A DNA stretch of 64,000 nt, from assembly GCA_021795215.1 (NCBI GenBank), contig JAJYPS010000001.1, forward strand, positions 728-64,727. The letters run 5' to 3'. Below the pieces are notes generated by a model that made no database searches, was not told the origin of the DNA, and saw nothing but the letters and a program-made list of their open reading frames with translations. Origin of the DNA: Actinomycetes bacterium. GTDB lineage: Bacteria > Actinomycetota > Acidimicrobiia > Acidimicrobiales > JAKAOS01. Both the position numbers and the translations under genes were made by a program. This document shows, piece after piece, positions 15,438 through 34,835 of the stretch (the stretch's first letter is position 1; every line of letters starts with the position of its first letter).

Positions 15438-15485
15438 GGCGCGCGTCCTCCCCATCTCTCTCCACTCGACGCCGCACCATAGAGC

Positions 15486-18274: not shown

Positions 18275-18320
18275 CTCCTTCCGGACAGTCCGAGCGACGA
18301 GCGGACAGACCCGCGTCGCA

Positions 18321-19682: not shown

Positions 19683-19803
19683 GAGAGCCGATCCTCCTAT
19701 CGCTCGGCAGCCGGCCGGCCGCCCCGCCAGAACAACGCAGCGCCGACAGGAACATTCCTCCTCCTTGCCTACCCTGCAGCGGACCTACCAACACGACACC
19801 TCA

Positions 19804-19885
19804 CGACGACTCAGTCCCTACGACGACTCAGTCCCTACGACGACTCAGTCCCTACGACGACTCAGTCCCTACGACGACTCAGTCC
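19804..19885. repeat. 17-bp tandem repeat, 4 full copies plus 1 partial (unit cgacgactcagtcccta)
   Basis: Perfect copies start at 19804, 19821, 19838 and 19855, with a partial copy at 19872. Each unit contains the palindrome GACTCAGTC. Confidence 0.95.
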
Positions 19886-20892
19886 GAAGCGCCTCCCTGG
19901 ACCTTTCCGGCTGCCCGGGAGGCAGCCCTCAGCACCCGGGACGAAGTGGTGGCCCTGGCCTCCCAGAAGCTGGCGGCATAGCCCAGCAGTGGCACCAGGG
20001 CGGCGTGGCGATGCTGCCAGGCTTCGGCTTCGTCCCCCAGCCACGCCAGTACACCCTCCGGCTCCTGCTCCAACAGCGATCGCAGCATGAAGCGACGCTC
20101 GCCTGCCCTTGCTCCGACGCCCAGCGACGACGCTGCCAGGGCGAGATCCGATCTGGCAAGCACGATCCCGGTACGGAGCGGAACCATCAAATGGGCGGAA
20201 ACGTCGTCGACCCCGCCCGATCCACCGTCATCCGGATCTCCCAGCGTCAGGCCGGGACCGGCCTCCCGGAGATGAAGCGATACGGTCCGGTCCATCGGTC
20301 GCCGCCCAGCACCACCGCCCTCCACGGAGCCTTCGGCGGCCCGGTCCCCCGGCGAGGCGTCTCCGGGGGAGGCTTCTGCCACGAGCGCCTCGAGCAACAG
20401 GGCCGCCCAGGCGGCCAGCGGCCCTGCTTCGGAACCCAGCCGCCGCGCCACCTGCTCCACCTTCTGGGAGAACAGCGGGATCCACGGCACCATGTGCTCC
20501 CACAGGAATGCTCTACGGGCGTTCGAGACCGGACTGTCTGACCGGCCGCCAGCGCCGCTCGCGCCGCTCCCCGGGCCGCCGCCTTCCGACTTGTCCCTCT
20601 CCCACTCCGCGTCCAGCAGCGAGGCGTAGAGCCCGCAGACGGATGCCAGGTGGTCGGGCTCCGGCGGTGGTGTCGCTCCCAGCACCCTCCAGAACCCGGC
20701 AATGCGATCGGCTGCCTCGCCACCCATCATCCCTTCCGCACCGACGTAGACGGATGCATAGGGATACACCTCCAGCAGGAGGATCTCCGTGTGGACGCCG
20801 GGGGCGGGAGCGCTGTCGAGGCCGAGGGCCCACGCCACGTCGGCCCTCTCGGGCGCCGCCGACTCCGACAGCGACCCGAGCGCCCGCCACAA
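19879..20892 (-). CDS. TorD/DmsD-family redox-enzyme maturation chaperone-like protein with a long C-terminal extension
   Basis: LLEVYPYASVY...PPPEPDHLASVCGLYASLL resembles the TorD-family core. It lies directly downstream of the molybdoenzyme gene. TTG start. Confidence 0.6.
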   Translation of the reverse strand: MWRALGSLSESAAPERADVAWALGLDSAPAPGVHTEILLLEVYPYASVYVGAEGMMGGEAADRIAGFWRVLGATPPPEPDHLASVCGLYASLLDAEWERDKSEGGGPGSGASGAGGRSDSPVSNARRAFLWEHMVPWIPLFSQKVEQVARRLGSEAGPLAAWAALLLEALVAEASPGDASPGDRAAEGSVEGGGAGRRPMDRTVSLHLREAGPGLTLGDPDDGGSGGVDDVSAHLMVPLRTGIVLARSDLALAASSLGVGARAGERRFMLRSLLEQEPEGVLAWLGDEAEAWQHRHAALVPLLGYAASFWEARATTSSRVLRAASRAAGKVQGGASD

Positions 20893-20931
20893 CTCGCCCC
20901 TGGACCTCTCGCCGTCTGTCAGCGCTACCGC

Positions 20932-23847
20932 TCAGAGCTTGGTCGGCAGGACGAAAGCGTCCTTGGTCGGCTTCAGAGGACGCAGCAACCAACGCGGGCG
21001 TCGAGTGCCCAGGGGCGAGACGGTGGTGGCGGGCCGTGCCATCGACATCCACTTCTTGAACACCTGCCGAGAGAGAGCGGTGTCGACTGCCACCTCCCCG
21101 GCCACGTCGCCCGGCTCGGCAGGCCGCACCCGCACCGCCTGGTGCCAGCAGTGCATCCCCGAGACGGGATCAGGATGGACCGGGAACGTGATGTTCTGGT
21201 GGACACCCACGTCGCTCCACCAGATGCGCTTCGTATCGGGGTCGGGAGAGTCGTACGGGCCGATCTCACCCTTCGGGGTCATACGCCAGCCACCCTCGTC
21301 GTGCGTCAGGTTCACCGTCCGCATCATCTTGTTCTCGCCCTGGTTGTCGTGCAGCTTCCAGCGGCCCATGTGGTGACTGCAGGCGACGACCCCGGGCCGT
21401 ATCCCTTCGGTCACCCACGCCTTCGCAACGAAATGGCCTATCTCCGTCTCGACGCGGGTCAGGTCGCCCTGACCGATCCCCAGCCGCGCCGCATCGATCG
21501 GATGGATCCATACCGGGTTGGTATGAGCGATCTCGTCCAGCCACTTGGCGTTGGCGGAGCGAGTGTGGATCTGGACCGGCAGGCGGAATGTGGACATGAG
21601 TGCCATCTGGTCCCGTTCCAGCTGTGAACGGTGCACGTGGCTGCGGATGTAGGTGGGCAGTGCCGCCTCCGCCCATCCCCAGTTGTCCAGTGTCGACGAA
21701 TAGAACTCCAGCCGGCCGCTCGGAGTGGGAAAGCCTCGCAGGATGCTTCCGTCCACCGTGATGCCGACCGGCCGGCGGCCCTCCTCGTCGGGATCAGGAT
21801 CGCCGATCGGCACCACGTTGGGCCCTGCTGGCTTCGGCGCCCGGGTGTAGACCCGCCCGATGTCGTTCACCACGGCATCGTCGATCTCCTCCTGAGGCAC
21901 CTCTCGCTCGTAGAGCGGACCGATGCCCTTGGCGATCTCGAACGCTCCGTAGCGGCGCATGAACTGGAGCGGCGTCAGCCCCTCCTTCGAAGCCGTCTCG
22001 GGCAGGCCCGGGACCGAGTTCTCGAACATCCAGCCGTAGTACTCGTCCACGCTCAGCTTCTGACCGGGCCGGGCCTTCGACTCGTGGTACTTCCGAATGC
22101 CCATGCTGCCGTCCGGATCGATCCTCCACGACAGGTCGATCCAGAACTCATTCTCTTCCCACACCTCACCCGGGTTGACCTGGCGCGTGTCGGTGATCGT
22201 CTCACCCAGCCGCTCCCGTGCCGCCCTCAGCACCGGTTGACGGAACCCCAGCCACTGCCCGTCGTACTGCTCGTAGGAGTGGGTGTCGTGACGCTCCGAC
22301 GAGTGACCCATGGGCAAGACGTAGTCGGCGAAGAACGCCGTCTCGTTCCACGTCGGCGTCAGCGCCACGTAGCAGCCCACCTTGGACTCGTCCAGCAGCA
22401 TCTCGATCCAGCTGAACCCGTCCGGATTGGTCCACACCGGGTTGTAGACCCGCGTGAAGTAGACCTCCAACCGGCCCTTGCCCTCGTCCATCAGATGAGG
22501 CAAGAGGAACGACAGCTCGTTCATCGCAAGGGGGAACTCGACCGGCCAGGAGAGGTCGCTCCAGACGGCCGGGTGGGGCGGCACGTGGATCGGGCGGGGG
22601 ACGAACTTGTTCCACGCGTTGGGGAACGTGCTGCCCGGCGTCGCGACGGCGCCCATGAGCGCGTTGAGCATGAACAGCGTGCGGGATACCTGCCATCCGC
22701 CCAGGTTGGAGGCGGAAGCCGAACGCCAGGTGTGGGTCGCCAGCGCCGTGCCCGCTCCCGAGATCAGCCGTGCCACCTCCTCCAGTGTCGCTGCGTCCAC
22801 TCCCGATTCGGCGGCCGCGAACTCGAACGTGTACGACGAGTACAGCTCTTCCAGCACCTCCTGGAAGCTTTCGAACGTCTGGGGCAGCTCCGGTTTCCGC
22901 ACGGCCATGTACTCCTGCCAGTTCCACCACCGCCGCACGAAGTCCGAGTTGTAGAGCTGGTTCCGGATGAGATAGCTCGCGATCGCCAGGTTGACTGCCG
23001 CCTCCGACCCCGGGTACGTCGACAGCCAGTGGTCGGCGTGCGTGGCGGTGTTCGAGAGCCTCGTGTCGGCCACTATGAGCTTGGCGCCGTTGGCGCGCGC
23101 TTCGGTGATCCTCTGGGCGTGCGGATTGAAGTAGTGGCCGGTCTCCAGATGAGAGCTGATGAGGTATATCACCTTCGCGTTGGCGAAGTCGGCGCTGGGC
23201 CGGTCCATGCCCAGCCAATAGTGGTAGCCGGCCCTGCCGCCGGACGAGCACACGTTCGTGTGGCTGTTGTGCCCGTCGACACCCCAGGAGGCGAGCACGC
23301 GCTCCGTGTAGCCGTCCTCTCCTGGCCGGCCGATGTGGCACATGATCTCGTTGTTCCGGCCCTCTTCCAGAGCCTTGCGAAGCCGAGCCGCGATCTCGTC
23401 CAGAGCAACGTCCCAGCTCACTCGCTCCCACCGACCCTCGCCGCGCTTCCCCGCCCTTCGCAGCGGGTAGAGCACGCGGTCCGGGTCGGTCACCTGGTTG
23501 ATCGTCGCAGGCCCCTTGGCGCAGTTCCTTCCACGTGAGCCGGGATGTTCGGGGTTCCCCTCGAACTTTCGTACCTGCAGTGTGTCCCGATCGACGTAAG
23601 CAAGCAGCCCGCATGCCGACTCGCAGTTGAAACAGGTGGTCGGCACCAGCATGGAACGATGGTGGACCCTCTCCGGCCACGCTCTCGAGTCGAGCTCGAC
23701 CCAGTCGTCCCAGCGCTCCTTCGGGGGAAACGATGCCAGATGCACCCTGGACGGCCCGGGGTAGAACGTCTCGCCCCGACTCTCCACCTGTTGTCTGGCA
23801 GCGCTCACTTCGGCTGCCAGACGCTCGAGTTTGCGGGTCATAGCCAC
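20932..23847 (-). CDS. molybdopterin (bis-MGD) oxidoreductase catalytic subunit, Psr/Phs/Soe-like, with no twin-arginine signal
   Basis: N-terminal FeS0 motif CFNCESACGLLAY...C, HTNVCSSGGRAG (Cys ligand region), 971 aa. The N-terminus MAMTRKLERLAAEV lacks an RR motif. Confidence 0.85.
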   Translation of the reverse strand: MAMTRKLERLAAEVSAARQQVESRGETFYPGPSRVHLASFPPKERWDDWVELDSRAWPERVHHRSMLVPTTCFNCESACGLLAYVDRDTLQVRKFEGNPEHPGSRGRNCAKGPATINQVTDPDRVLYPLRRAGKRGEGRWERVSWDVALDEIAARLRKALEEGRNNEIMCHIGRPGEDGYTERVLASWGVDGHNSHTNVCSSGGRAGYHYWLGMDRPSADFANAKVIYLISSHLETGHYFNPHAQRITEARANGAKLIVADTRLSNTATHADHWLSTYPGSEAAVNLAIASYLIRNQLYNSDFVRRWWNWQEYMAVRKPELPQTFESFQEVLEELYSSYTFEFAAAESGVDAATLEEVARLISGAGTALATHTWRSASASNLGGWQVSRTLFMLNALMGAVATPGSTFPNAWNKFVPRPIHVPPHPAVWSDLSWPVEFPLAMNELSFLLPHLMDEGKGRLEVYFTRVYNPVWTNPDGFSWIEMLLDESKVGCYVALTPTWNETAFFADYVLPMGHSSERHDTHSYEQYDGQWLGFRQPVLRAARERLGETITDTRQVNPGEVWEENEFWIDLSWRIDPDGSMGIRKYHESKARPGQKLSVDEYYGWMFENSVPGLPETASKEGLTPLQFMRRYGAFEIAKGIGPLYEREVPQEEIDDAVVNDIGRVYTRAPKPAGPNVVPIGDPDPDEEGRRPVGITVDGSILRGFPTPSGRLEFYSSTLDNWGWAEAALPTYIRSHVHRSQLERDQMALMSTFRLPVQIHTRSANAKWLDEIAHTNPVWIHPIDAARLGIGQGDLTRVETEIGHFVAKAWVTEGIRPGVVACSHHMGRWKLHDNQGENKMMRTVNLTHDEGGWRMTPKGEIGPYDSPDPDTKRIWWSDVGVHQNITFPVHPDPVSGMHCWHQAVRVRPAEPGDVAGEVAVDTALSRQVFKKWMSMARPATTVSPLGTRRPRWLLRPLKPTKDAFVLPTKL

Positions 23848-23878
23848 GACCGACCTTCCTTTGCCGCCACCGGCGCGG

Positions 23879-25480
23879 TCACGCGAGTGGCACCGACTGA
23901 GCTGCTTGCACGTACGAATGCTCGTGGGGCAGAAGACCGGCCAGAGCGACGAGTCCCGCCCACCAGCCCACGAACGGGGCGAGAACGCCTACGGCCAGCA
24001 TCGCTGCTCCGACCCAGAAGGCACTGGCGTAGCGACCGTGGGTCATCTCCCTGGCGGCGAGATGGGCGTGGGCAGTGGGGTGACCGGTGGCGGTCTCCGC
24101 CAGCCGCAGCAGCAGGTGCGCCGCCGCTGCCGCCGCCACGAATATCGCAAGCGCACCCGTTACAGCGGGCTGGAACGCCACTGCGACAGGAAGCATCGAC
24201 GCAGACCCGGCGAGCACGGCCTCGACCGCCAGATGCGGAGCGAGGATGGGGCTCTGCCACAGGTCCCTCGCCCTCGCCTGGGCGAAAAGGAACGCCGTGT
24301 ATATGGCCGTCGCGATCGCCGCAGGAATGCCCACGAACGCCAGCGCCTGGTGTGCTGTTCCGGAAAGCCCGTGGACGGCCGATGCCCCCAGCAGAGCCGG
24401 CGTCCCGAGCACCGACGTCACCAACTGGGCGGTCAGCACAAGTCCGTAGAGCGAGATCACCACGCTTCCCTTGACCAGCCAGCTTCCCCATTTGTGCTTG
24501 GTGAAGATCATGTAGAACCGGAACGGATGCTTCAGGTCCCAGATGAGCAGCACCCCCGTCACACTCAGGAAGGCGAGCGCTACCAGGGGGGCGGCCCAAC
24601 TGACCAGCGGAGAGGTCCACGAGACGAGCCCGAACGCCGCCAGGAGCGCAGGCACGAGGTATGCGCCGGCCGAGATTCCCTTCGTCCAGGTGTAGAGGCT
24701 CACCCTCCATCCCCAAGGAGCCGTGTGGGCGACGTCGTAGGAAACGACCGCCCGAGGCGCCGAAGTCTCCCGACCGTGGCTCACCGGGTGGCCGGAGTTG
24801 ACCACTTGGGGGCCCTCCAGCATCTGGGACCACATGAACGTGCCGCCGTCCGGCCGCTCCGCCGCAAGAGGATCCAGCGTCGACTGATGGGCTCCCTTGT
24901 AGAAAAGCTTCGGCCTCGTCTTCTTTTCGGGACGCCTCACCGACACCGGTTGCCGGTGCACCGTCTGGGAGACCTTCGACGTGGGGTCCGACAGATCGCC
25001 GACCAGGATCGCCTCGGTCGGGCACACCACCACGCACGCCGGCTCCAAGCCGATCTCGAGCCGATGGGCGCAGAAGTTGCACTTCTCCGCGGAATGGTCC
25101 TCCGGATTTATGAATATGGCGTCGTAGGGGCAAGCCGCCATGCACGCCTTGCAGCCGATGCAGATCCGCTTGTCGAAGTCGACGATCTTGTCCGGCCGGA
25201 TGTACATGGCGCCCGTCGGGCACGCTGCCACGCAGGGCGGGTTCTCGCACTGGTTGCACCTGGTCACCTGGAACGCCCTCCGCACCTGGGGGAACGTCCC
25301 GACGTCGACCGACTTCACGTACGTCCGAGTCACGCCCAGAGGAACGTTGTTCTCGCTCTTGCACGCCGTGGTGCACGCATGGCAGCCGATGCAGCGGGTC
25401 TGGTCGAGCACCTTCACCCATCGAGGCGACCCGTCAGAGCCGCTCGCCACCGTCGGCCGATCCTGGCTCACGCTTACCAA
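23879..25480 (-). CDS. fusion of a four-cluster 4Fe-4S subunit (PsrB/DmsB-like) with an NrfD/PsrC-like membrane anchor
   Basis: Cysteine clusters CIGCHACTTAC, CNQCENPPCVAACP, CIGCKACMAACP and CNFCAHRL...CVVVCP are followed by about 8 helices. TTG 25480 sits 7 nt after aaggagggg. The track ORF runs to 25678. Confidence 0.8.
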   Translation of the reverse strand: MVSVSQDRPTVASGSDGSPRWVKVLDQTRCIGCHACTTACKSENNVPLGVTRTYVKSVDVGTFPQVRRAFQVTRCNQCENPPCVAACPTGAMYIRPDKIVDFDKRICIGCKACMAACPYDAIFINPEDHSAEKCNFCAHRLEIGLEPACVVVCPTEAILVGDLSDPTSKVSQTVHRQPVSVRRPEKKTRPKLFYKGAHQSTLDPLAAERPDGGTFMWSQMLEGPQVVNSGHPVSHGRETSAPRAVVSYDVAHTAPWGWRVSLYTWTKGISAGAYLVPALLAAFGLVSWTSPLVSWAAPLVALAFLSVTGVLLIWDLKHPFRFYMIFTKHKWGSWLVKGSVVISLYGLVLTAQLVTSVLGTPALLGASAVHGLSGTAHQALAFVGIPAAIATAIYTAFLFAQARARDLWQSPILAPHLAVEAVLAGSASMLPVAVAFQPAVTGALAIFVAAAAAAHLLLRLAETATGHPTAHAHLAAREMTHGRYASAFWVGAAMLAVGVLAPFVGWWAGLVALAGLLPHEHSYVQAAQSVPLA

Positions 25481-25656
25481 CTTCGGTCCCCTCCTTGTCC
25501 GGCTCCTAGTCGGCCGGCTTCTGGCCCGTCCGGACTCCGGCTCCAAAGCATGTCGGAGCCGCCCAGCTTGCCCGCTGCTCGGACGACTTCCGTTGCAACC
25601 GTCTCGGTGTACTCCGCCCGCCCCGTCGTCCCGATCCGCCGGACCAGGCTTCGGGG

Positions 25657-25703
25657 CCAATACCGCCAAATCCGCCAAGCTGCCAATACCGCCAAATCCG
25701 CCA
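25657..25703. repeat. 21-bp direct repeat x2 (ccaataccgccaaatccgcca), 26-bp period, upstream of the FeS-NrfD gene
   Basis: The copies at 25657-25677 and 25683-25703 are identical. Confidence 0.9.
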
Positions 25704-25796
25704 CCCTATGGGAGAGCAATCACACGGTACGCCACCTGGGCAGCCGCAGGAACCGGGATCATGCCTATGGCGCCAGAGGCAATCTCTATGGCCCCT

Positions 25797-26759
25797 CTAT
25801 GGCGCCGACGAATGCTGGCGGTCGACAACGCCCTTCACGCCGGGCAGCTGCGCAAGGAGCGCTGCAGCGGCAGGTGCCAGAGCCCGGGACGCAGGCCAGA
25901 GGGCGTGGAGCCGGCGGCTCATGTCCAGACCGGCGACTTCGATCGGGCAGAGGGCGCCCGAAGCGAGCTGGTCCGCCACGGCCAGTCGGCTCAACACACC
26001 CGGTCCAGCCCCACCCGCCACAGCTGCCACTACTGAGCTCGAAGAGCCGAGCTCGAGCCGAGCCTTGAGCGAGGGCGCGCCGACCACGTCGAGTGCCCTG
26101 TCCAGTGCCTCCCGCGTCCCCGAGTCCGGCTCCCTCACCACCAGCGGTGTCGCCACCAACGCAGCGACCGACAGGGGGGCTCTCCGACGCGTCCAAGCGT
26201 GTCCGGGCGGTACAACTACCACTAGGTCGTCGCTTCCCACGACCTTGTATGCCATGTCCCCCGGAAGCTCGGGAGCTTCCACGAAGCCGAGGTCGAACCC
26301 GTCCCGCACCCTGTCCACCACACGAGTCGAGTTGGCGACCTCCAGCTCGGTCCGCACGCTCGGAACGGACCGCTGGAATTTCGAGAGCCATCTCGGCAAG
26401 AGGTGCTCGGCGATGGTGAAGCTGGCTGCCAGGCGCAGCCGGCCGGTCCGCTCCCTGCGGAGGGCCGAAACCCCCGCTGTCAAGTGCTCGGCGGCCTCCA
26501 GGACGCGCTGCGCCCACTCCGCGACCACCGCACCGTCCTCAGTCGGCACCGACCCCGTGGCACCCCGTTCCAGAAGCTTCACCCCGAGTTGGCGCTCGAG
26601 CCCAGCGAGACGAGCGCTCACCGAAGGTTGGGCAAGCCCGGCGGCGGCGGCGGCACGCGACACGCTACCCAGCCGAGACACCAACACGAACAGTCGGAGC
26701 GCTTCCAGGGACGGTAGCGGCGGTGCCGTCCGAGGCGAACGGACGCCCGGATCGTTCAT
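25797..26759 (-). CDS. LysR-family transcriptional regulator
   Basis: HTH LEALRLFVLVSRLGSVSRAAAAAGLAQPSVSARLAGLERQLG followed by a LysR substrate-binding domain. Start chosen at MNDPG (26759). Confidence 0.9.
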   Translation of the reverse strand: MNDPGVRSPRTAPPLPSLEALRLFVLVSRLGSVSRAAAAAGLAQPSVSARLAGLERQLGVKLLERGATGSVPTEDGAVVAEWAQRVLEAAEHLTAGVSALRRERTGRLRLAASFTIAEHLLPRWLSKFQRSVPSVRTELEVANSTRVVDRVRDGFDLGFVEAPELPGDMAYKVVGSDDLVVVVPPGHAWTRRRAPLSVAALVATPLVVREPDSGTREALDRALDVVGAPSLKARLELGSSSSVVAAVAGGAGPGVLSRLAVADQLASGALCPIEVAGLDMSRRLHALWPASRALAPAAAALLAQLPGVKGVVDRQHSSAP

Positions 26760-27507
26760 CCGGCTCGGCGCCCGAACCGGCCAGTCCCTCCGGTGCATGG
26801 GGCCACTCGGGTGCCGAGGCAGCCATACCGGTAGACGCCTGCCCGGCCGGGCCTCCTCTCGGTGACACCCCGCAACATGACTCGATCATACGGCCGACGT
26901 GGGCGAATCCCGTCGCCGTTTGCAATCACCTGCCAGCAAGAGTAAGCCTTGGTCGCCGTACTCGCCGGCTTGCTTCGAAAGGAGCCAACCATTGCGTTGG
27001 AGTCGCACCTTGAAGCTCCCTCTGTCGAAAAGGGTGACCACCACCGCCGGCATCCTCCAAAGGCTGCCGGGCGGGAACCCGCGCCGCGGTCGACATCGCT
27101 CCCAGCACGCCACCAGACCGGTAGAGCTGACCGTGGTCGGAGCGCCGTTCGAACGGGCCGGCCGCCGGCTACCGTCCGATCTGCCGGTGACGCCGACGAT
27201 CGTGGCGGGCGCCCCGATAACGGTCGCAGGCGACGCAGCGTCGGCAGCCTCGGCAGGAGCCGCCGTTCCGAGCTCGCCACGCGCACGGATGGACCGTGCC
27301 CATGCGGCTGCAGGCCCGGCCGCCCTGCCTAGAGCATCTGCCTTTCGCACGTTCGTCACCTCTCCCCTGCCTCGGCGAATGTCGGGCAAGGTCCACCCTG
27401 CCAGGAGAAGCTTCACGCCCCCGCTTCCAGCGCCCCAGGGAGGCCGGTGGTACGGCGACAAGGCGATCTTCGCCGCACCGGCGTCGGGCGTGTACCGCTA
27501 CCTGGCT

Positions 27508-28884
27508 TCAGGTCCGCTGCACCTGACCAGCCCCGGCGGACCACACCACGTCGCCTGCGATTAGGACGTCCTGACCGACGACGGACACCACCCGATCGTC
27601 CAAGCCGATCGCCCCCGCGACGCTGTCGATCCCCAGCGCGCCCACGGCGTCCACCCCTTCCCCGAGGATGCGCGGCGATACTCCGACGACCAGCCTGTCC
27701 ACCAGACCAGAGGCCAGGAACGAAGTAATGACGCGGCCTCCACCCTCCACGAGGACGGACGTGACTCCGAGGCGGCGCAGCAGCAGCAGCGTTTCCGCCA
27801 ATGCCACTCCTCCGGGGCCGGGGGGAGCGTGGTGCACTGCGACACCCAACCGTTGCAGCAGCCGTTTTCGATCTGGATCGCAGTCGGCGAGGCTGACCAC
27901 GATGGTCCTGCCGCCGTCGGCGAAGATCCTCGCGTCGGACGGACTGCTGAGCGTGGAGTCCAGCACCACCCGGGCCGGCGAGCTCCCTTCGACCAGCCTT
28001 ACCGTCAGCTGTGGATCGTCCGTCTCGACGGTCGCCCGTCCCACCAGCACCGCGTCGCAGCTCGCCCGCAGCGAATGCGACACTGCCCGCTCCTCCTCCC
28101 CGCTCACCCAACGGGAGTCACCGGTTGCGGTGGCAAGGCGACCGTCCAGGCTCTGCGCGTACTTGAGCAGTACGTAAGGACGATCCGGACGTGCCCTGAC
28201 CGTCCCCATGAGGCGGCGCACGTCCGCTCCTTCGGCCGTCAGCTCGGGTAGCGCCCCTCCGAGAGGTTCCTGGTGGCCCATGCGGGACTCTTTTGTCCGG
28301 AGGTACTCGTGACTCCGGGCATGGGGGACCACAGGGACCGGAACTCTCTCCGCCACCCTCACCCCACATGCTTCTAGTGCCAGGGCCTTGTCCGGGTTGT
28401 TGGTCAGCAACCGGACCGACTGCACCCCGAGGCTGGAGAGCACCTGGGCCGCCGTCGTGTAGCTCCTGGCGTCTGCCGGCAGACCGAGGTGAAGGTTGGC
28501 GTCCACCGTGTCCGCCCCCAAGTCCTGCTCCGCATAGGCCATCAACTTCTTGACCAACCCGATGCCCCGGCCCTCGTGCCCGGTCACGTACAGCAGCACC
28601 CCTCGACCTGCCGCAGCTATCGAACGCAACGAGGCCTTCAGCTGGGAGCCGCAGTCGCAGCGGAGAGAGCCGAACGTGTCGCCGGTCAGGCACTCCGAAT
28701 GCAGCCGGGCCAGGACGTCTCGGCCGTCCCCCATGTCACCCAGGATCAGTGCGACGTACACCAGCCCCGGCGGCACGTCGAACGCTACGGCTTTGAACTC
28801 GCCGAACGGAGTGGGCAACTTGGCCGACGCGGACGCCCGGAGCTGCTCGCCTGCCTGCCCGTCCAGGGGGGAGAGAATCGACAT
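27508..28884 (-). CDS. fusion protein: GTP cyclohydrolase II (RibA) plus RibD C-terminal-type pyrimidine reductase
   Basis: N-terminal half: HSECLTGDTFGSLRCDCGSQL, GHEGRGIGL. C-terminal half: YAQSLDGRLATATGDSRWVSGEEERAVSHSLRASCDAVLVGRATVETDDPQLTVR, VLVEGGG. No deaminase or DHBP-synthase domain is present. Confidence 0.85.
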   Translation of the reverse strand: MSILSPLDGQAGEQLRASASAKLPTPFGEFKAVAFDVPPGLVYVALILGDMGDGRDVLARLHSECLTGDTFGSLRCDCGSQLKASLRSIAAAGRGVLLYVTGHEGRGIGLVKKLMAYAEQDLGADTVDANLHLGLPADARSYTTAAQVLSSLGVQSVRLLTNNPDKALALEACGVRVAERVPVPVVPHARSHEYLRTKESRMGHQEPLGGALPELTAEGADVRRLMGTVRARPDRPYVLLKYAQSLDGRLATATGDSRWVSGEEERAVSHSLRASCDAVLVGRATVETDDPQLTVRLVEGSSPARVVLDSTLSSPSDARIFADGGRTIVVSLADCDPDRKRLLQRLGVAVHHAPPGPGGVALAETLLLLRRLGVTSVLVEGGGRVITSFLASGLVDRLVVGVSPRILGEGVDAVGALGIDSVAGAIGLDDRVVSVVGQDVLIAGDVVWSAGAGQVQRT

Positions 28885-28908
28885 CACCCCGCCCTACCCT
28901 CGTCGCCG

Positions 28909-29970
28909 ATGACAGGAACAGGATGCGGCCATCCGGGGCCGGAAGACCACCCAAGGGGCTGGGGCGGGCCACCTTCCACGGCGAGAGCACTCCGGTTCCT
29001 CGGCCCCAGGGAGGTCGGCATCCGGGAAGTGGACGTGTCGACGCCGGTGGAGGGAGAAGCCACGGTCAGGACTCTGTGGTCCGGGATCAGCACCGGCAGC
29101 GAGCTGCTCGCCTATCGCGGTTCCATCCATCCCGCCACGGCGCTCGACGACTCCATCGGGAGCCTCGGGGGTACGTTCACCTACCCTTTCGGCTACGGGT
29201 ACAGCTGCGTGGGCGTCGTGGAGCGTTCCCGGTGCGACGTGGAGGAAGGCACCACCGTTTTCGCCTTCCATCCGCATCAGGAACGGTTCACGGTGCCCGC
29301 AGGGGAGATGGTCCGGTTGCCCGGTTCACTGGAGCCTCGCAACGGCGTGATGTTCCCAATGGTGGAGACGGCGCTCCAGATCGCGCTGGACGCAGGAGAT
29401 GTGAAGTCCGAGACGGTCGTAGTGACCGGGATGGGCGTAGTAGGTATCCTGACCGCGCTGCTGCTCTCCAGGAGCGGTGCAGCGGTGATCGGCTCCGAAC
29501 CTGCCTCCTGGCGCCGCCAGGCTGCGCTGCAGGCGGGCGTCGAGGCGGTCCACCCCTCGCAGCTGGCCGCCCGCTGCTCGGAGGCTACCTCCGGTGCAGG
29601 CGTGCCGCTGGTCGTCGAAGCCACCGGACGGCCGGAAGTTCTCGACGACTGCCTGGCTCTCTGCGCTCACGAAGGTACGGTGCTGGTCGCGTCGTGGTAC
29701 GGCACTCAACCGGTGCGGGTGGATCTCGGCGGCCGCTTCCACAGGCGAAGGCTCACCTTGAGAAGCACCCAGGTCTCGACCATTCCCGCCTCCCTGTCGC
29801 ATCGATGGACGGTCGCCAGACGGCGCAACTCCGCGCTGAGGCTGGCCGAAGAGCTGCCGCTGGGCCTCCTCGCAACCACCGAGGTCCCCTTCGAGCAGGC
29901 GGCTTCCGCCTACTCCATGCTGGACTCGCATGCCGAAGGAGTGATGCACGTCACGCTGCGGTATCACTGA
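28909..29970 (+). CDS. zinc-type medium-chain alcohol dehydrogenase/reductase family protein
   Basis: MDR-like layout with VVTGMGVVGILTALLL (Rossmann) and the N-terminal GroES-like part GEATVRTLWSGISTGSE. The first in-frame ATG is 28909, which leaves an odd 25-aa leader, so the start is uncertain. Confidence 0.75.
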   Translation: MTGTGCGHPGPEDHPRGWGGPPSTARALRFLGPREVGIREVDVSTPVEGEATVRTLWSGISTGSELLAYRGSIHPATALDDSIGSLGGTFTYPFGYGYSCVGVVERSRCDVEEGTTVFAFHPHQERFTVPAGEMVRLPGSLEPRNGVMFPMVETALQIALDAGDVKSETVVVTGMGVVGILTALLLSRSGAAVIGSEPASWRRQAALQAGVEAVHPSQLAARCSEATSGAGVPLVVEATGRPEVLDDCLALCAHEGTVLVASWYGTQPVRVDLGGRFHRRRLTLRSTQVSTIPASLSHRWTVARRRNSALRLAEELPLGLLATTEVPFEQAASAYSMLDSHAEGVMHVTLRYH

Positions 29971-29973
29971 GCG

Positions 29974-30375
29974 GTGCATGCAGCCAACGACGCAGCGTAC
30001 GAAACGGGCGACTCGGTCGAAGTGGTTGCGTTCCACTGCCAGCCCGGCCTCCCGCCACCCGAAGGGGTCCCCCACTCCCATCGCTATCGGCTCGCAGTGA
30101 CCCTGACCGGGGACCAGCTGGACGAGGAGGGCATGCTGGTCGACCTGGACCGGCTGGGGGCCGTCATGCGCGACGTGGCCGGCCGTATCGACCAACAGGA
30201 CTTGGACGTGGTGGTCGGGCCTTCGACGACGGTCGAGAGGCTGGCCCACTGGGTGCACGGTCGACTCTCGTCCGCCCTCGGCCCCGGCACCGACCGTCGG
30301 CTCCTTGCTGCGGTCAGGGTATGGGAGTCCGACACGGCGTTCGGGGGGTACTGCGCTCCTCTGGTCGACCGGTGA
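29974..30375 (+). CDS. 6-pyruvoyl-tetrahydropterin synthase / QueD-like (T-fold) protein
   Basis: AFH...PHSHRYRLAVTL (HxH-x-Y metal motif) and C-terminal WESDTAFGGY. GTG start 4 nt after the ADH stop. Confidence 0.7.
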   Translation: MHAANDAAYETGDSVEVVAFHCQPGLPPPEGVPHSHRYRLAVTLTGDQLDEEGMLVDLDRLGAVMRDVAGRIDQQDLDVVVGPSTTVERLAHWVHGRLSSALGPGTDRRLLAAVRVWESDTAFGGYCAPLVDR

Positions 30376-31511
30376 CCGGAGGGCCCGTCGAGACCGGGTC
30401 CCTGCTCGAAACGACTCTGCTGACGCTCGGCTCCCCTTCCACGCTCAGCGGCGGCTACCTCTACCACCAGCGAGTTGCCAGCCTGGCCCCCAACTGCGGT
30501 GCGCGGTTCCGGTTCGTGTCCTTCCCCGATCTTCCCTTTCCCCTGCCGGTCGCCGCGAGCCGCCGGGTCCTGGCGGAAGTCCTCGACCAGCGCCCCGACG
30601 TGGTGCTGGTCGACAGCATCGCCGCGGCGTACGCGACGTTCCTTCGGTCGAGGATCGCCCGGCGGGCTCCGATAGCGGTGATGATGCACCAGCCGCCCGG
30701 AGGGATGGAGCACGGCTGGTGCACTACAGCGGCTACCAGGATGCTGGACCGCCTGTTGCTCGCCCGCGCAGATCACGTGTTCGCGGCCAGTGAGAGTCTC
30801 GGGGAACCGCTCGCCCGCAGCGGCGTGGCTGCAGGCGCGGTGACGGTCGTGCCGCCTGGCTGCGACACGTCCAGCGGCGGATCCGACACTTCGGAGGCTG
30901 CAGGACCGAGTTGGGCGCACCTCCGCCGGGGCAGGCGGGCCGCAGTCGCCTGTGTCGCCAACTGGATTCCCCGAAAGGGCATCATGGAGCTTCTGGATGC
31001 CTTCGCGATGCTGCCCGACGACCAGGCCTTCCTCCATTTGGCCGGCGACGCCGACGTGGAGCCGGCATACGGAGCTGCCGTCAGGAACAGGCTGGCCGAG
31101 CCGGACCTTCGGGAGCGGGCGGAGATGCACGGCCGACTGTCGCCTGCCCAGGTGGCGGCGCTCTATGCAGGCGTGGACTTCTTCGCGCTGGCAAGCGTGC
31201 AGGAGCCCTACGGCACCGTCTACGGCGAGGCGATGGCAGCAGGACTGCCGGTAGTGGGTTGGCGTGCAGGAAACCTGCCCAACCTGGCCTCGGACGGCGT
31301 CGAGGGGCTGATGGCCGAACCGGGTGAAGTGAAAGCACTTTCGGCGGCGATGTCTCGGCTCGCTCGGGACGAGGTTCTGCGAGCCGAGATGGGAACGGCC
31401 GCCCTGCGGCGGGCCGACCAGTTCCCCACTTGGCAGGACACGACCTGCGCGCTGGTCGACGGCATGCGGCGTCTGGTGGCGCAGCGCGAGAGAAGCACTC
31501 TCACAGGATGA
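30372..31511 (+). CDS. glycosyltransferase family 4 (GT-B, group 1)
   Basis: GTGA overlap with the PTPS-like gene. The C-terminal half has EPYGTVYGEAMAAGLPVVG and GLMAEPG (E-x7-E region). The 862-aa track ORF is over-extended in its 5' part. Confidence 0.8.
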   Translation: MTGGPVETGSLLETTLLTLGSPSTLSGGYLYHQRVASLAPNCGARFRFVSFPDLPFPLPVAASRRVLAEVLDQRPDVVLVDSIAAAYATFLRSRIARRAPIAVMMHQPPGGMEHGWCTTAATRMLDRLLLARADHVFAASESLGEPLARSGVAAGAVTVVPPGCDTSSGGSDTSEAAGPSWAHLRRGRRAAVACVANWIPRKGIMELLDAFAMLPDDQAFLHLAGDADVEPAYGAAVRNRLAEPDLRERAEMHGRLSPAQVAALYAGVDFFALASVQEPYGTVYGEAMAAGLPVVGWRAGNLPNLASDGVEGLMAEPGEVKALSAAMSRLARDEVLRAEMGTAALRRADQFPTWQDTTCALVDGMRRLVAQRERSTLTG

Positions 31512-32617
31512 AAGTCACCCTCGTAGCCCCGACTCCGTTCGGCAGGGCCGGGATCTACGGCGGTGGCGAGCGGTACCCCCTCGAGCTGGGTCGCGCTCTG
31601 GCCCGTCACACGGAGTGCGAACTTGTGTCTTTCGGTGGCCGATCCGCCCAATGGCGAGAGTCCAGCGGCCTGATGAGACGTCAGGTGCGCTCCGTGGGCA
31701 CCCTGAGAGGCCATCCTGCCCACCCGATCGCGCCTCGTCTGCTGAGCGAGCTGCGCGGCAGCGATGTCGTCCACGTGCATCACCTGTACGCCTTGCCCAG
31801 TCAGGTCGCAGCACTGCTGGGCCGGTGCCGGGGCAACCGCGTGGTCGTGACCGACCACGGTCTGACAGGGCGATGGGCGGATCTGGTGGCGAAGCTGTAC
31901 CAGTGCCACCTGGCCGTGTCGGACTACTCCGCAAAGCGCGTACGGATCCCCCCGGAGAGGTCGCCGGTCGTCTACGGCGGAGCGGTCGACGCCATGTTCG
32001 ACGCGGGAGCCGCGAGAGCAGCCGGAGGCGACTCGACCAGGGCGGGACTGCTGTTCGTCGGACGGCTCACTCCCCACAAGGGCGTGGACCGGCTCATAAG
32101 AGCCTTGCCGGACGGAGTGCGGCTCACGGTCGTGGGAAGCGGTGGCCATGACGACAACGAGCCGGAACGGAGCTATCCCCAGCTCCTGCGGGGGATGGCC
32201 GCTGGGAAGGACGTGCATTTCGCCGGCCCCGTCGGGACCCCGCAATTGGCGACTTTGCTGGCAGCTTCCGAGGCCCTCGTGCTGCCGTCCGTGGAGCGCA
32301 CCTGTTTCGGTCGGCGGATAGAAGTCTCGGAACTGCTGGGGCTGGTCGCCCTGGAGGCCATGGCGGCAGGCACACCGGTCATCGCCAGCCGTCTGGGAGG
32401 TGTGCCCGAAGTCGTGCTGCACGGCGAGACCGGCCTCCTGGTCACTCCCGGGGACGTGACGGGACTGCGCTCCCGCATCGCCCAGCTGCACGGCGATCGG
32501 CGACTTGCACGACGCCTGGGAAGGACGGCCAGCGAGTGGGTCGCCTCGCGTTTCACGTGGGACCACGTCGCACTGCGCTGCCTGGCTGCTTACGAACAAG
32601 CGGGTTCGGTCGAATGA
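31508..32617 (+). CDS. glycosyltransferase family 4 (GT-B, group 1)
   Basis: ATGA overlap with the upstream GT. FVGRLTPHKGVD, GLVALEAMAAGTPVIAS and ETGLLVTPGD. Confidence 0.85.
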   Translation: MKVTLVAPTPFGRAGIYGGGERYPLELGRALARHTECELVSFGGRSAQWRESSGLMRRQVRSVGTLRGHPAHPIAPRLLSELRGSDVVHVHHLYALPSQVAALLGRCRGNRVVVTDHGLTGRWADLVAKLYQCHLAVSDYSAKRVRIPPERSPVVYGGAVDAMFDAGAARAAGGDSTRAGLLFVGRLTPHKGVDRLIRALPDGVRLTVVGSGGHDDNEPERSYPQLLRGMAAGKDVHFAGPVGTPQLATLLAASEALVLPSVERTCFGRRIEVSELLGLVALEAMAAGTPVIASRLGGVPEVVLHGETGLLVTPGDVTGLRSRIAQLHGDRRLARRLGRTASEWVASRFTWDHVALRCLAAYEQAGSVE

Positions 32618-32670
32618 GACCGAACCCGCTGAAGCTCGGGGCCCCGGAAGTCTGTCCCGCCGCCGACCGA

Positions 32671-33477
32671 TCATTCGGACGGGCGGCCCACCACGAGCAT
32701 CACCGGAGAATCGGCACGGAGCTCCGTGCCGTCGTAGTCCCCCGCCACGGACGTCACCTCGAGTCCGTGGCGGGCCAGCAGATGCTCCATCTCGTAGCGG
32801 TGCGCGTAGCGCAACTCCCACTCGAGCACGTCCTTGCGAACTGAACCGTCGGTGGCGACCAGCTCGTACACCGAACGGGTCGTGCGCAACTGAAGTGCCA
32901 GGTCGGTGGCGACCGTGGTCTCGGTGCGCAACACCGTTGCTCCGTCCAGCACGCCGGCCACGTCCTGCACGACCGATCCGGGCTGCCTCGCCATCCAGTC
33001 CAGCGTCGGGTGCAACAGATCCAGCACCAGCGTCCCCCCGGGCGCCAAGTGCCGCCTCATCCGCTCCACCGCCGAATGTTGTGCTTCGGCGGTGACCAGG
33101 TAGAAGAACGTCTTTACGGGCACAAGGACGAAATCGAACGTCCGGTCCAGCTCCAACGTCGTCATGTCCCCGTGGACCAGTTCCGTCCCGATCCCGCCAG
33201 GCCGGCGATGGGCCGAGAGCTTCGCCGCCGCTCGCTCCAGCATCGACGTCGAACTGTCGACACCCACCACGTCGAACCCGGCGCCGTCCAACGCAGTCGT
33301 CACCCGACCCGTGCCGCATCCCAGTTCCAACACCGATGCCCTCCTCGTCCGGCCCCGGAGCAACCGCAGGTAGAACGGGATGTCGGCGTCGAAGTGGAAG
33401 CTGTCGTACAGAAGCGGCATGTGCTCCGTATGCCACATGGAGCAGCCGGGACCGTCTCCGGACCGGTACTCGCTCAT
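32671..33477 (-). CDS. class I SAM-dependent methyltransferase
   Basis: VLELGCGTGRVTTAL...VVGVDSS motif I. Its ATG overlaps the dnaB stop (ATGA). Confidence 0.85.
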   Translation of the reverse strand: MSEYRSGDGPGCSMWHTEHMPLLYDSFHFDADIPFYLRLLRGRTRRASVLELGCGTGRVTTALDGAGFDVVGVDSSTSMLERAAAKLSAHRRPGGIGTELVHGDMTTLELDRTFDFVLVPVKTFFYLVTAEAQHSAVERMRRHLAPGGTLVLDLLHPTLDWMARQPGSVVQDVAGVLDGATVLRTETTVATDLALQLRTTRSVYELVATDGSVRKDVLEWELRYAHRYEMEHLLARHGLEVTSVAGDYDGTELRADSPVMLVVGRPSE

Positions 33478-34835
33478 ACCCTGGCCATGTTTGCGAAACG
33501 GGCGTAGTGATCCAAGAAGGCGAGCTGCGTGATGCCAGTCGGGCCGTTGCGGTGCTTCGCCACTATCACCTCGGCCGTCCCGCGGTCGTTCGACTCCTGG
33601 TTGTAGATCTCGTCCCGGTAGATGAAGAGGACCACGTCCGCGTCCTGCTCCAGGGAGCCCGACTCCCGAAGGTCAGCCAACACGGGCCGCTTGTCGGCCC
33701 TCATCTCCAGGTTCCGGGAGAGCTGCGACAGGGCCACCACCGGGACCGACAGCTCCCTGGCGAGGATCTTCAGTCCCCTGCTGATCTCCGACACCTCCAC
33801 TTGGCGGTTCTCGGCGCTGGTCCGGCCGGACATCAGCTGGAGGTAGTCCACTACCACCAGACCGAGGCCGGACTTGCTCTTCAGCCGGCGCGCCTTTGCT
33901 CTGATCTCCATCACGGTCAGGTTCGGATTGTCGTCCACGAACATAGGCGCTTCACCCAGCCTTCCAATGGCGTGGCTCAACTTCGGCCAGTCGGACTCCA
34001 GCAAGCGACCATTCCTCACCCTGCTGGAGTCCACCCTCGCTTCCCCGCACAGCAGCCTCTGGGTGATCTCCAGATGGCTCATCTCCAGCGAGAAGACCAG
34101 CGTCGGTACTCGCCTCTCCATCGCCGCATGAGCCGCCATGCCCAGAGCGAAGCTGGTCTTACCCATGCCCGGCCTGGCCCCCACTATGACCAGGTTGGAC
34201 GGCTGCAGCCCCGACAGCCGCTCGTCCAGCTCGTGGTATCCCGTGGGGACGCCGGTTATGGCTTCCTCCCTGCCGTACAGAGCCTCCAGGTTGTCCAGCG
34301 TCTGCGCCAGAAGGTCCTTGAGCGGCGACATGGTGTCCGACGCCTTCCGCTGCGCGACTTCGAACACCAGCGTCTCCGCCCTGTCCAGAGCAGCGGTCAC
34401 GTCCTCGGGGACCTCGTAACCGATGTCTGCTATCTCCGTCGCGACACCGATCAGACGCCGCAGCAGAGCATGCTCTTCCACGATCGATGCGTAGCGAGCG
34501 GCATTGGAGATGGTGGGCGTGTTGGCTTGCAGGCCGATCAGGAAAGGCGGCCCACCGATCTGGTCACCCACATTGGTCCTGCGCAGCTCGTCTGCCACCG
34601 TCACGGGATCGGCGGGCTCTCCTCTGGCGTAAAGGGAGGAGATGGCGGCGAACACCTGCGCGTGTGCCGGCTTGTAGAAGTCCGCTGCGGAGCATCTCTC
34701 GATGGCAGTTGCGATCGCATCCCGCGACAGCAGCATCGCCCCCAGCAGCGACGCCTCCGCTTCGATGTCGTGAGGAACGGTCCTGGTGGAGTCGTTCGGA
34801 GGCCGGCTGCGGGCGGCGTTAAGAGAATGGACCAC
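33474..34835 (-). CDS. dnaB: replicative DNA helicase DnaB
   Basis: PHDIEAEASLLGAML, Walker A GARPGMGKTSFAL, and 453 aa with no intein-sized insertion. Confidence 0.95.
   Translation of the reverse strand: MVHSLNAARSRPPNDSTRTVPHDIEAEASLLGAMLLSRDAIATAIERCSAADFYKPAHAQVFAAISSLYARGEPADPVTVADELRRTNVGDQIGGPPFLIGLQANTPTISNAARYASIVEEHALLRRLIGVATEIADIGYEVPEDVTAALDRAETLVFEVAQRKASDTMSPLKDLLAQTLDNLEALYGREEAITGVPTGYHELDERLSGLQPSNLVIVGARPGMGKTSFALGMAAHAAMERRVPTLVFSLEMSHLEITQRLLCGEARVDSSRVRNGRLLESDWPKLSHAIGRLGEAPMFVDDNPNLTVMEIRAKARRLKSKSGLGLVVVDYLQLMSGRTSAENRQVEVSEISRGLKILARELSVPVVALSQLSRNLEMRADKRPVLADLRESGSLEQDADVVLFIYRDEIYNQESNDRGTAEVIVAKHRNGPTGITQLAFLDHYARFANMARV

Follow-up and report, generated by a model that had tools for sequence, protein, structure and literature searches.

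What is made by a group of six genes that brings together an enzyme opening GTP, a pterin-type T-fold protein, and two glycosyltransferases, and do these genes form a unit? The question is raised by positions 27508-33477 of a 64,000-nt stretch of actinobacterial DNA, which as a whole is called the window here. Four plus-strand genes encode a medium-chain dehydrogenase/reductase (MDR), a T-fold protein resembling 6-pyruvoyltetrahydropterin synthase (PTPS), and two family 4 glycosyltransferases (GT4), named GT_A and GT_B. They stand divergently from a gene for a GTP cyclohydrolase II (GCH II)-reductase fusion and are followed by a gene for a class I S-adenosylmethionine (SAM) methyltransferase. 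Using translations of the open reading frames (ORFs), Pfam, and NCBIfam, all six genes were found at the coordinates given in a preliminary description of the DNA. The locus appears to be a dedicated, widely conserved, uncharacterised actinobacterial small-molecule cluster that leads from GTP to a sugar-decorated pteridine- or pyrimidine-type product. Judged by sequence, it is a sister variant of the known but unsolved SCO6650 cluster (PTPS-IV type). Our tentative preference, held at somewhat below an even chance, is that the cluster diverts GTP through GCH II, rather than GCH I, to a glycosylated, methylated pterin that keeps the 2-amino-4-oxopyrimidine ring.

Conservation of the module

Loci were collected with a pattern scan of one genome per GTDB species. 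The scan returned 51 loci, from Geodermatophilaceae (including the cultured Geodermatophilus ruber DSM 45317), Jiangellaceae, Micromonosporaceae, Streptosporangiaceae, Gaiellaceae, Solirubrobacterales, and Acidimicrobiia. The window proteins were then compared by tblastn with these loci and with four metagenome loci, and genes were tallied over 53 non-duplicate loci. The 53 loci come from three classes (Actinomycetes, Thermoleophilia, and Acidimicrobiia), and their flanking genes are unrelated. The dehydrogenase was present in 49 of them and an orthologue of GT_A in 47. The full GCH II-reductase fusion was found in 41 loci, with a partial copy in six more owing to contig ends or frameshifts. 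A phosphatase was found in 37 loci, GT_B in 34, and an orthologue of the methyltransferase in eight. All-against-all clustering of the ORFs of the loci gave no further widely conserved gene. Searches with the T-fold protein returned 387 homologous matches at 45-59% identity, nearly all from soil metagenomes, and the neighbourhoods of three of these homologues contained the same divergent module between unrelated flanks.

With the module recurring in 53 loci of three classes between unrelated flanks, the gene arrangement is far beyond chance. The genes form a conserved unit, as the preliminary description had proposed, and their adjacency is kept in related genomes. In each of the 34 other loci with GT_B, this gene sits between the T-fold gene and GT_A and is encoded on the opposite strand, so the co-directional GT_A-GT_B order in the window is a lineage-specific rearrangement. 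In two metagenome-assembled genomes (MAGs), the cluster genes gave fragmented, frame-shifted tblastn matches of lower identity (L054, 8001-9564; L055, 5031-9460), and these copies look pseudogenised or misassembled.

Predicted entry from GTP

The fusion gene (27508-28887, minus strand) encodes a GCH II domain at residues ~20-205 (Pfam GTP_cyclohydro2, PF00925, E 4e-59) and a pyrimidine reductase domain of RibD_C type at residues ~237-442 (PF01872, E 5e-46). Both domains pass riboflavin-pathway models in NCBIfam, the GCH II domain TIGR00505 ribA with 216.3 bits (cut-off 205.85) and the reductase TIGR00227 ribD_Cterm with 171 bits (cut-off 150). The N-terminus is GCH II, and neither a deaminase domain of the cytidine deaminase type nor a 3,4-dihydroxy-2-butanone 4-phosphate (DHBP) synthase domain was found in the fusion protein with Pfam and NCBIfam. 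A deaminase is also missing from the conserved gene set of the 53 loci.

The zinc Cys triad (HSECLTGD...LRCDCG) is present in the translated GCH II domain, where the Tyr of KLMAYAEQD is the equivalent of E. coli RibA Tyr105. Work by Spoonamore and Bandarian is said to have shown that a Tyr of this type separates normal GCH II from a variant that stops at the formylated intermediate. Because the Cys triad and the Tyr are both kept, the domain should make 2,5-diamino-6-ribosylamino-4(3H)-pyrimidinone 5'-phosphate (DARPP). The earlier proposal that GTP is converted to a ring-opened intermediate therefore stands, as GCH II retains the residues predicted to be required for the ring-opened diaminopyrimidine. 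For the reductase domain, the best PDB matches were near-equal, with 111.6 bits for the archaeal-type DARPP reductase 6p8c and 107.6 bits for B. subtilis RibD. The equivalent of Lys151 of B. subtilis RibG, which bears on whether the substrate is 2-amino or 2-oxo, falls just outside the reliable reductase alignment.

Since both domains pass riboflavin-pathway models, the fusion could simply supply precursors of riboflavin and F420, as a housekeeping or back-up enzyme, and have nothing to do with its neighbours. This is very unlikely. The cluster contains no deaminase, DHBP synthase, lumazine synthase, or riboflavin synthase, and a search of 25500-34000 with Rfam gave no match at E<=1, including no flavin mononucleotide (FMN) riboswitch or other RNA element. 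The explanation is strongly disfavoured by the pairing of the fusion with dehydrogenase, T-fold, and GT4 genes, which is kept over three classes while the flanks change.

The T-fold protein and the dehydrogenase

The T-fold protein (29974-30375, plus strand, 133 residues; Pfam PTPS, 9e-19) belongs to a family with 287 representatives at E<=1e-10 in a 50%-clustered library. The family motif is LPPPEGxxHxHxYR ... DLD ... TVE ... VRVWESxTAFGGY. The invariant residues H21, H34, and H36 align with the zinc ligands of PTPS and QueD, and the invariant E88 (TVE) and E118 (VWES) align with the pterin-binding glutamates that anchor the 2-amino-4-oxopyrimidine ring. At the position of the catalytic Cys of QueD (CxxxHGH) stands an invariant Glu30 (EGxxHxH). 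The Asp-His relay is absent, the LDHhyLN of QueD being aligned to gkDLD. The protein scored 41.3 bits on TIGR03367 (QueD), for which the cut-off is 89.25, and it also stayed under the PTPS cut-offs of NCBIfam. The AlphaFold2 (AF2) model had a predicted local distance difference test score (pLDDT) of 91, and its top Foldseek match was SCO6650 (3d7j) with a template modelling score (TM) of 0.80. SCO6650 was also the sole PDB match for the C-terminal two-thirds (99 residues) of the family consensus.

The best matches of the T-fold protein, by sequence and by fold, include QueD structures, which would place the locus in queuosine or 7-deazapurine metabolism. That the protein is a QueD is hardly credible given the score, the Glu in place of the catalytic Cys, and the missing Asp-His pair, and on the same grounds assignment to PTPS-I was rejected. 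No queC, queE, or folE is found among the gene families conserved over the 53 loci, and GTP enters through GCH II, not GCH I. The preliminary description was right in taking the protein for a PTPS-like enzyme distinct from bona fide QueD; its residues place it in a distinct PTPS-like subfamily.

Four PTPS groups have been distinguished by their signatures, CxxxHGH for PTPS-I, CxxxxxHGH for PTPS-II, ExxHGH for PTPS-III, and FGPAQ for PTPS-IV (PMC5041015, PMC5445326). The window protein fits none of these exactly. PTPS-III is similar in having a zinc site, an active-site Glu instead of Cys, and pterin-anchoring glutamates. Proteins of this Glu type are PTPS paralogues that cleave dihydroneopterin phosphates to make 6-hydroxymethyl-dihydropterin and so bypass FolB (PMC5041015). 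Membership in PTPS-III was rejected because the signature there is ExxHGH and the spacing here is ExxxHxH, with Ser, Glu, Pro, or Ala rather than Gly as the middle residue; the window family also lacks the folate-gene context. The group is kept as a mechanistic analogy. Plasmodium PTPS structures were a much weaker match to the window protein than SCO6650 or QueD. Membership in PTPS-IV by the FGPAQ signature was rejected as well, since the window family has LPPPEGxxHxHxY at that place and the SCO6650 orthologue P0121 has FGPAQRLHGATF. The neighbourhood of PTPS-IV type, GCH II (PF00925) with RibD_C (PF01872), is present in the window as the divergent fusion beside the T-fold gene. The link of PTPS-IV to such neighbourhoods was noted in 2017 (PMC5445326), and a role of PTPS-IV in archaeal F420 synthesis has been cited only as unpublished work (PMC5041015).

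The dehydrogenase gene (28909-29970, plus strand; Pfam ADH_zinc_N, PF00107, 3e-14) had been described as a zinc-dependent alcohol dehydrogenase. The MDR fold is there, with a Rossmann nucleotide-binding motif of GxGxxG type (VTGMGVVG), and the canonical catalytic zinc ligands are absent. When aligned to threonine dehydrogenase 2dfv, the protein has Ser (SGISTGSE) in place of the catalytic zinc Cys. The motif PF.YGYS, placed by reading the sequence in a region outside the aligned segments, appears to replace the GHE motif. Motifs invariant in the family are SGIS.G.E, PF.YGYS, FHPHQ, SWYG, and FHRRRL. The best NCBIfam match was BchC (TIGR01202) with 77.6 bits against a cut-off of 291.25. Identity with BchC (3-hydroxyethyl bacteriochlorophyllide dehydrogenase) was rejected on this score, the "BchC" names of homologues at the Joint Genome Institute (JGI) being automatic. 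The AF2 model (pLDDT 90.6) had threonine, 2,3-butanediol, and sorbitol dehydrogenases as its top folds, with TM 0.72-0.78, and these closest matches all oxidise secondary alcohols. The protein is best described as a BchC/polyol-dehydrogenase-like MDR enzyme using NAD(P) without canonical catalytic zinc ligands. Oxidation of a secondary alcohol is thus more likely than the dehydrogenase-mediated reduction proposed earlier.

The four plus-strand genes are tightly packed, as had been described, except that the first gap is 3 nt and not 4: read from the sequence, the stop codon TGA of the dehydrogenase ends at 29970 and the GTG of the T-fold gene starts at 29974. Stop and start codons overlap at GTGA (30372-30375) between the T-fold gene and GT_A and at ATGA (31508-31511) between GT_A and GT_B. 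Apparent joins in single polypeptides were found in the 50%-clustered library, of the T-fold protein with a GT4 N-terminal domain (P0286) and of the MDR dehydrogenase with the T-fold protein (P0298 and P0338). These may be genuine fusions or may reflect read-through across overlapping stop and start codons.

Predicted sugar transfer, dephosphorylation, and methylation

GT_A (30372-31511, plus strand) is the core GT4 enzyme, of GT-B fold, and GT_B (31508-32617, plus strand) is an accessory second GT4; both have the Pfam domains Glyco_transf_4 and Glycos_transf_1. The best solved relatives of GT_A were MshA (3c4q) and the sucrose-phosphate synthase Tll1590 (6kih). GT_B matched Tll1590 with 81 bits, a BshA-type structure with 65 bits, and MshA with 62 bits. 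It also matched tetrahydrobiopterin glucosyltransferases (9v0l, 52 bits; 5ze7, 36 bits), more weakly than sucrose-phosphate synthase, BshA, or MshA and over the C-terminal, donor-binding domain only. No tetrahydrobiopterin glucosyltransferase was among the PDB matches listed for GT_A. The match of GT_B is best read as that of a shared glycosyltransferase fold, and as a sign of specific kinship with the pteridine glycosyltransferases BGluT and PGT it is weak and confined to that domain. GT_A and GT_B are predicted to be ordinary soluble GT4 enzymes, whose characterised relatives glycosylate small, often phosphorylated, soluble acceptors. With best matches to MshA, sucrose-phosphate synthase, and BshA, they stand outside established envelope-glycolipid families, in keeping with the preliminary description.

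Phosphatases in the related loci are of three unrelated types. A His_Phos_1 clade lies directly downstream of the fusion gene in 20 loci, a second His_Phos_1 clade occurs in eight, and a haloacid dehalogenase (HAD) hydrolase occurs in seven. The use of three unrelated phosphatases in one slot (non-orthologous displacement) is good evidence for dephosphorylation as a step of the pathway. Such a step, overlooked in the preliminary description, is best counted as part of the pathway in most relatives. A cluster-encoded phosphatase was not found in the window when all of it was searched for the three types by tblastn and profile hidden Markov models. The closest relatives of the window also have none, and the window lineage must therefore use a phosphatase encoded elsewhere. 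The His_Phos_1 slot of the relatives corresponds to the ~700 nt between a LysR-type regulator (25797-26798, minus strand) and the 3' end of the fusion gene. This segment (26799-27507) has no codon periodicity and no convincing ORF. A decayed phosphatase gene at 26800-27507 was considered and rejected, as no remnant of the three types was detectable.

These enzymes bring in the main rival explanation, in which no pterin is formed. The acceptor would be ribityl-diaminopyrimidine 5'-phosphate or a lumazine-like derivative, the GT4 enzymes would glycosylate the phosphorylated polyol chain, a phosphatase would follow, and the dehydrogenase and T-fold pair would alter the chain or ring in another way. 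MshA acts on inositol phosphate and sucrose-phosphate synthase (SPS) on fructose 6-phosphate, and glycosylation followed by dephosphorylation is the logic of the MshA/MshA2, SPS/SPP, and GpgS/GpgP systems. The best characterised relatives of GT_A and GT_B (MshA, SPS, and BshA) favour this explanation, as do the phosphatases embedded in 37 of the 53 clusters, whose presence fits that logic; the reductase-GCH II fusion, moreover, commits the intermediate to the ribityl form. Left without a clear role are the always-paired dehydrogenase and the T-fold enzyme with its zinc and Glu. The likeness to known GT4 enzymes is mostly confined to the donor-binding domain and is a poor guide to the acceptor, and the characterised T-fold relatives of PTPS type act on bicyclic pterins (PMC5041015). 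We regard this ribitylaminopyrimidine product as possible, if on balance doubtful.

The methyltransferase gene lies at 32671-33477 on the minus strand (Pfam Methyltransf_25/11/12), and thus converges on the 3' end of the four plus-strand genes as had been described. Its best NCBIfam match was a daptide-type methyltransferase with 94 bits, below the cut-off of 175. Its first 4 nt (33474-33477) overlap the dnaB stop, and in the window it appears to be co-transcribed with the string rpsF-ssb-rpsR-rplI-dnaB. Orthologues of 49-54% identity adjoin the cluster in eight loci without dnaB nearby. As the gene stays with the cluster where dnaB is absent, it is counted as an accessory member. That the GTP-derived product receives one sugar or two, in some cases with a methyl group, is strongly implied.

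On the contig of P0004 (JGI 3300041965), which is among the closest relatives of the window, a gene of 492 aa resembling HldE, with PfkB kinase and cytidylyltransferase-like parts, sits directly 3' of the GCH II-reductase fusion. This bifunctional gene hints at a sugar-nucleotide supply step.

Relation to the SCO6650 cluster and other known systems

The preliminary description did not recognise the gene combination as a characterised cluster. A precedent exists, since the window cluster is a sister of the S. coelicolor orphan cluster SCO6649-SCO6655. SCO6650 orthologues and their neighbourhood were examined, and the Streptomyces cluster was found to share its core genes with the window. In gene order, it comprises a CDP-alcohol phosphatidyltransferase, an MDR dehydrogenase (37% identity to that of the window), a PTPS-IV protein with FGPAQRLHGATF, a GT4 (30% identity to GT_A), a methyltransferase-like protein, a flippase-like LPG_synthase_TM membrane protein, a creatininase-family protein (ArfB-like), and a stand-alone GCH II (54% identity to the GCH II domain of the window). 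Dehydrogenase, T-fold protein, GT4, GCH II, and methyltransferase are thus found both in the window and in S. coelicolor SCO6648/6649-SCO6655, although the two methyltransferases have no detectable similarity. The Streptomyces cluster differs in having a stand-alone GCH II and a creatininase-family gene in place of the GCH II-reductase fusion, one GT4 instead of two, and the CDP-alcohol phosphatidyltransferase and LPG_synthase_TM genes, neither of which is in the window cluster. SCO6650 itself differs by its FGPAQ motif, the loss of the third zinc His, and the lack of a Glu at the Cys position.

Enzymology of SCO6650 and SCO6655 and a crystal structure (PDB 3D7J) have reportedly been available since 2006-2008. 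SCO6650 is said to be metal-free and inactive as a PTPS in the 2008 structure paper, and SCO6655 is said to be a paralogue of GCH II whose product is ring-opened and still formylated. A literature search found no characterised product for SCO6650/SCO6655, for PTPS-subfamily clusters, for GCH II combined with creatininase or CDP-alcohol transferase, or for pterins of Geodermatophilaceae.

Three loci (L020, L030, and L041) combine the window-type T-fold protein with CDP-alcohol transferase and LPG_synthase_TM genes, and they also have a stand-alone GCH II, a His_Phos_1 protein, and two methyltransferases. By gene content they bridge the window-type and Streptomyces-type clusters. These membrane genes raise the further explanation that the product is a lipid or cell-envelope head group, in which a GTP-derived polyol would be joined to a phospholipid or glycolipid and flipped outward, the window being a trimmed form with its lipid genes elsewhere. 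The CDP-alcohol phosphatidyltransferase and LPG_synthase_TM of the Streptomyces sister cluster argue for it, as does the occurrence of the same two membrane genes with a window-type T-fold protein in the three bridging loci; PimA and PimB, both among the PDB matches of the glycosyltransferases, also belong to the GT4 family. No such membrane genes are present in the window cluster or in the ~45 fusion-type loci, which carry a second soluble GT4 and soluble phosphatases instead. For the Streptomyces-type variants, a product linked to lipid is plausible; for the window type it is not indicated, and there we give this explanation a low chance.

The pterin glycoside pathways of cyanobacteria and green sulfur bacteria use GCH I, PTPS, and sepiapterin reductase, followed by BGluT or PGT, and lead to biopterin glucoside, tepidopterin, and cyanopterin. 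The window shares this logic, with a GTP-opening enzyme, a T-fold enzyme, an NAD(P) oxidoreductase, and a GT-B glycosyltransferase. The window differs in its entry by GCH II and a reductase rather than GCH I, in a T-fold protein without the catalytic Cys, in an oxidoreductase of the MDR instead of the short-chain dehydrogenase/reductase (SDR) type, and in its host, which is a non-phototrophic member of the Actinomycetota. Cyanopterin is 6-hydroxymethylpterin with two sugars and an O-methyl group, and these additions would fit the two glycosyltransferases and the methyltransferase of the window.

A bypass of GCH I has been shown experimentally in Chlamydia, where RibA and TrpF convert the GCH II product to dihydroneopterin monophosphate via a 1-deoxy-ribulosylamino intermediate (PMC4161248). 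There, one isomerase does the Amadori step, in contrast to the reduction by RibD_C and re-oxidation by the MDR enzyme that we infer for the window.

Proposed pathway

In the favoured route to a glycosylated pterin, the GCH II domain of the fusion is predicted from its sequence to open and deformylate GTP to DARPP, and the fused RibD_C domain to reduce the ribosyl group to ribityl without deamination. The 5'-phosphate would be removed at some stage, as comparative genomics suggests. The MDR enzyme would oxidise the ribityl chain at one of its secondary hydroxyls, most plausibly that at C2', to give the 1-deoxy-ribulosylamino (Amadori-type) intermediate that GCH I also forms. The C2' ketone would condense with the 5-amino group to a pterin of the 7,8-dihydroneopterin type. 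The translationally coupled T-fold enzyme would bind the pterin ring through E88 and E118, and its zinc site with Glu30 as base may aid ring closure, side-chain remodelling, or both, in a manner like that of PTPS-III and not dependent on Cys. Glycosylation by GT_A, a second glycosylation by GT_B, and methylation by the methyltransferase would give a pterin diglycoside similar in kind to cyanopterin or the neopterin glycosides. The 2-amino group would be kept, because there is no deaminase and the anchors of the T-fold protein are glutamates. The order of the steps is the one we infer. Of the route outlined in the preliminary description, the GTP-derived pathway with T-fold chemistry and two sugars agrees with the conserved unit, the GCH II residues, and the pterin anchors of the T-fold protein; the reduction step is more likely an oxidation, and dephosphorylation had been missed.

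Several observations are counted in favour of this route. The fusion has the domain content and catalytic residues for the first steps, and neither it nor the conserved set includes a deaminase. Stop and start codons overlap, and apparent dehydrogenase-T-fold and T-fold-GT4 fusions occur in metagenomes. The T-fold family has an invariant zinc triad, Glu30, E88, and E118 and lacks the Cys/Asp/His triad found in PTPS and QueD. The dehydrogenase fold is nearest to secondary-alcohol and polyol dehydrogenases, the module recurs in 53 loci with phosphatases in 37 of them, and tetrahydrobiopterin glucosyltransferases match the C-terminal domain of GT_B at significant E-values. Precedents by analogy are Chlamydia RibA with TrpF and the action of Glu-type PTPS on dihydroneopterin phosphates. 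For MDR oxidation at a polyol C2, sorbitol dehydrogenase, which is among the fold matches, offers a comparable precedent; the ribulose-5-phosphate reductase TarJ is an MDR enzyme acting at polyol C2.

Other points weigh against the route. Its main weakness is that reduction of the ribosyl group followed by re-oxidation at C2' is a roundabout Amadori rearrangement. The Glu spacing ExxxHxH departs from the PTPS-III signature ExxHGH. The sister protein SCO6650 has neither the third His nor the Glu and yet belongs to an analogous cluster, so the function that the two share may not require metal-dependent chemistry. The two GT4 enzymes are nearer to MshA and sucrose-phosphate synthase than to pteridine glycosyltransferases, which fits glycosylation of a phosphorylated polyol equally well. 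With near-equal scores for the archaeal-type and B. subtilis enzymes, the substrate of the reductase may be a 2-amino or a 2-oxo pyrimidine. The variants with CDP-alcohol phosphatidyltransferase and flippase-like genes hint at a lipid-linked product in some lineages.

Intergenic signals and flanking genes

The divergent intergenic region between the fusion and dehydrogenase genes is very short (28888-28908). It measures 21 nt if the fusion starts at GTG 28887 and 24 nt if it starts at ATG 28884, so the 24-bp spacing given earlier holds for the second start only. Public gene calls for the same contig (MAG GCA_027414515.1) begin the dehydrogenase 40-42 codons later. Alignments with homologues extend back to residues 16-25 of the dehydrogenase, and ATG 28909 is the sole in-frame start upstream. 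A TANNNT-type hexamer, TACCCT, ends 8 nt before this ATG. Related loci also have short divergent spacers, with called starts ~20-25 nt apart in L001 and L004. A GTTACTTTAGTG-like motif adjoining both start codons is kept in the short spacer of many loci of Gaiellales type (L001-L004, L016, L019, L024-L028, L031, L033-L035, L037, L038, and L046-L048). These spacer motifs suggest shared or overlapping -10 elements and perhaps leaderless transcripts.

At the other end, a perfect 12-bp inverted repeat with a 6-nt loop (32600-32629; GCGGGTTCGGTC-GAATGA-GACCGAACCCGC, read from the sequence) contains the GT_B stop codon and lies between the convergent GT_B and methyltransferase genes. It is probably a bidirectional terminator. 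Because the repeat has no T-tract, a scan with a terminator consensus did not call it. With PADLOC models, the sole match was that of a generic methyltransferase-domain model (mad2) to the methyltransferase, and no known anti-phage defence system was found.

Upstream of the cluster, at 17054-25678, lies an unrelated sulfur/respiratory block. It contains genes for a pyridine-nucleotide disulfide oxidoreductase (17054-18274), a metallo-beta-lactamase-rhodanese protein (18321-19682), a molybdopterin oxidoreductase (20932-23847), and a 4Fe-4S/NrfD fusion (23879-25678). Still further upstream, a minus-strand gene (14283-16214) encodes a protein of 643 residues with monogalactosyldiacylglycerol (MGDG)-synthase-like and GT1/GT28 domains, which is probably a separate, lipid-directed glycosyltransferase outside the conserved module.

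Implications

In its widest form, the proposal is that Actinomycetota have a pterin route independent of GCH I, made up of the fusion, a polyol-type MDR enzyme, and a T-fold protein with zinc and Glu, and that this route feeds new GTP-derived conjugates. These would be soluble methylated diglycosides in window-like clusters and head groups linked to phospholipid or glycolipid in Streptomyces and Streptosporangiaceae, where the cluster has the CDP-alcohol phosphatidyltransferase and the flippase-like protein in addition. We consider this whole picture fairly unlikely. If true, it would assign a function to the SCO6650/SCO6655 orphan cluster, which is without a pathway or product, and to the PTPS-IV group, which is still listed without a clear function.

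Among soil Actinomycetota, the sister cluster has a wide distribution that includes Gaiellales, Solirubrobacterales, Acidimicrobiia, and Geodermatophilaceae. Its T-fold protein retains a complete metal site and a candidate base, its first two steps are fused in one protein, and its accessory genes for the second glycosyltransferase, phosphatases, and methyltransferase sketch the remaining pathway. An old orphan pathway is thereby made tractable, including in the cultured G. ruber DSM 45317 (NZ_FOSW01000013.1, 57808-74185). This may lead to glycosides of a new class, with pterin or ribitylaminopyrimidine as their core, and perhaps to a second route to the pterin ring.

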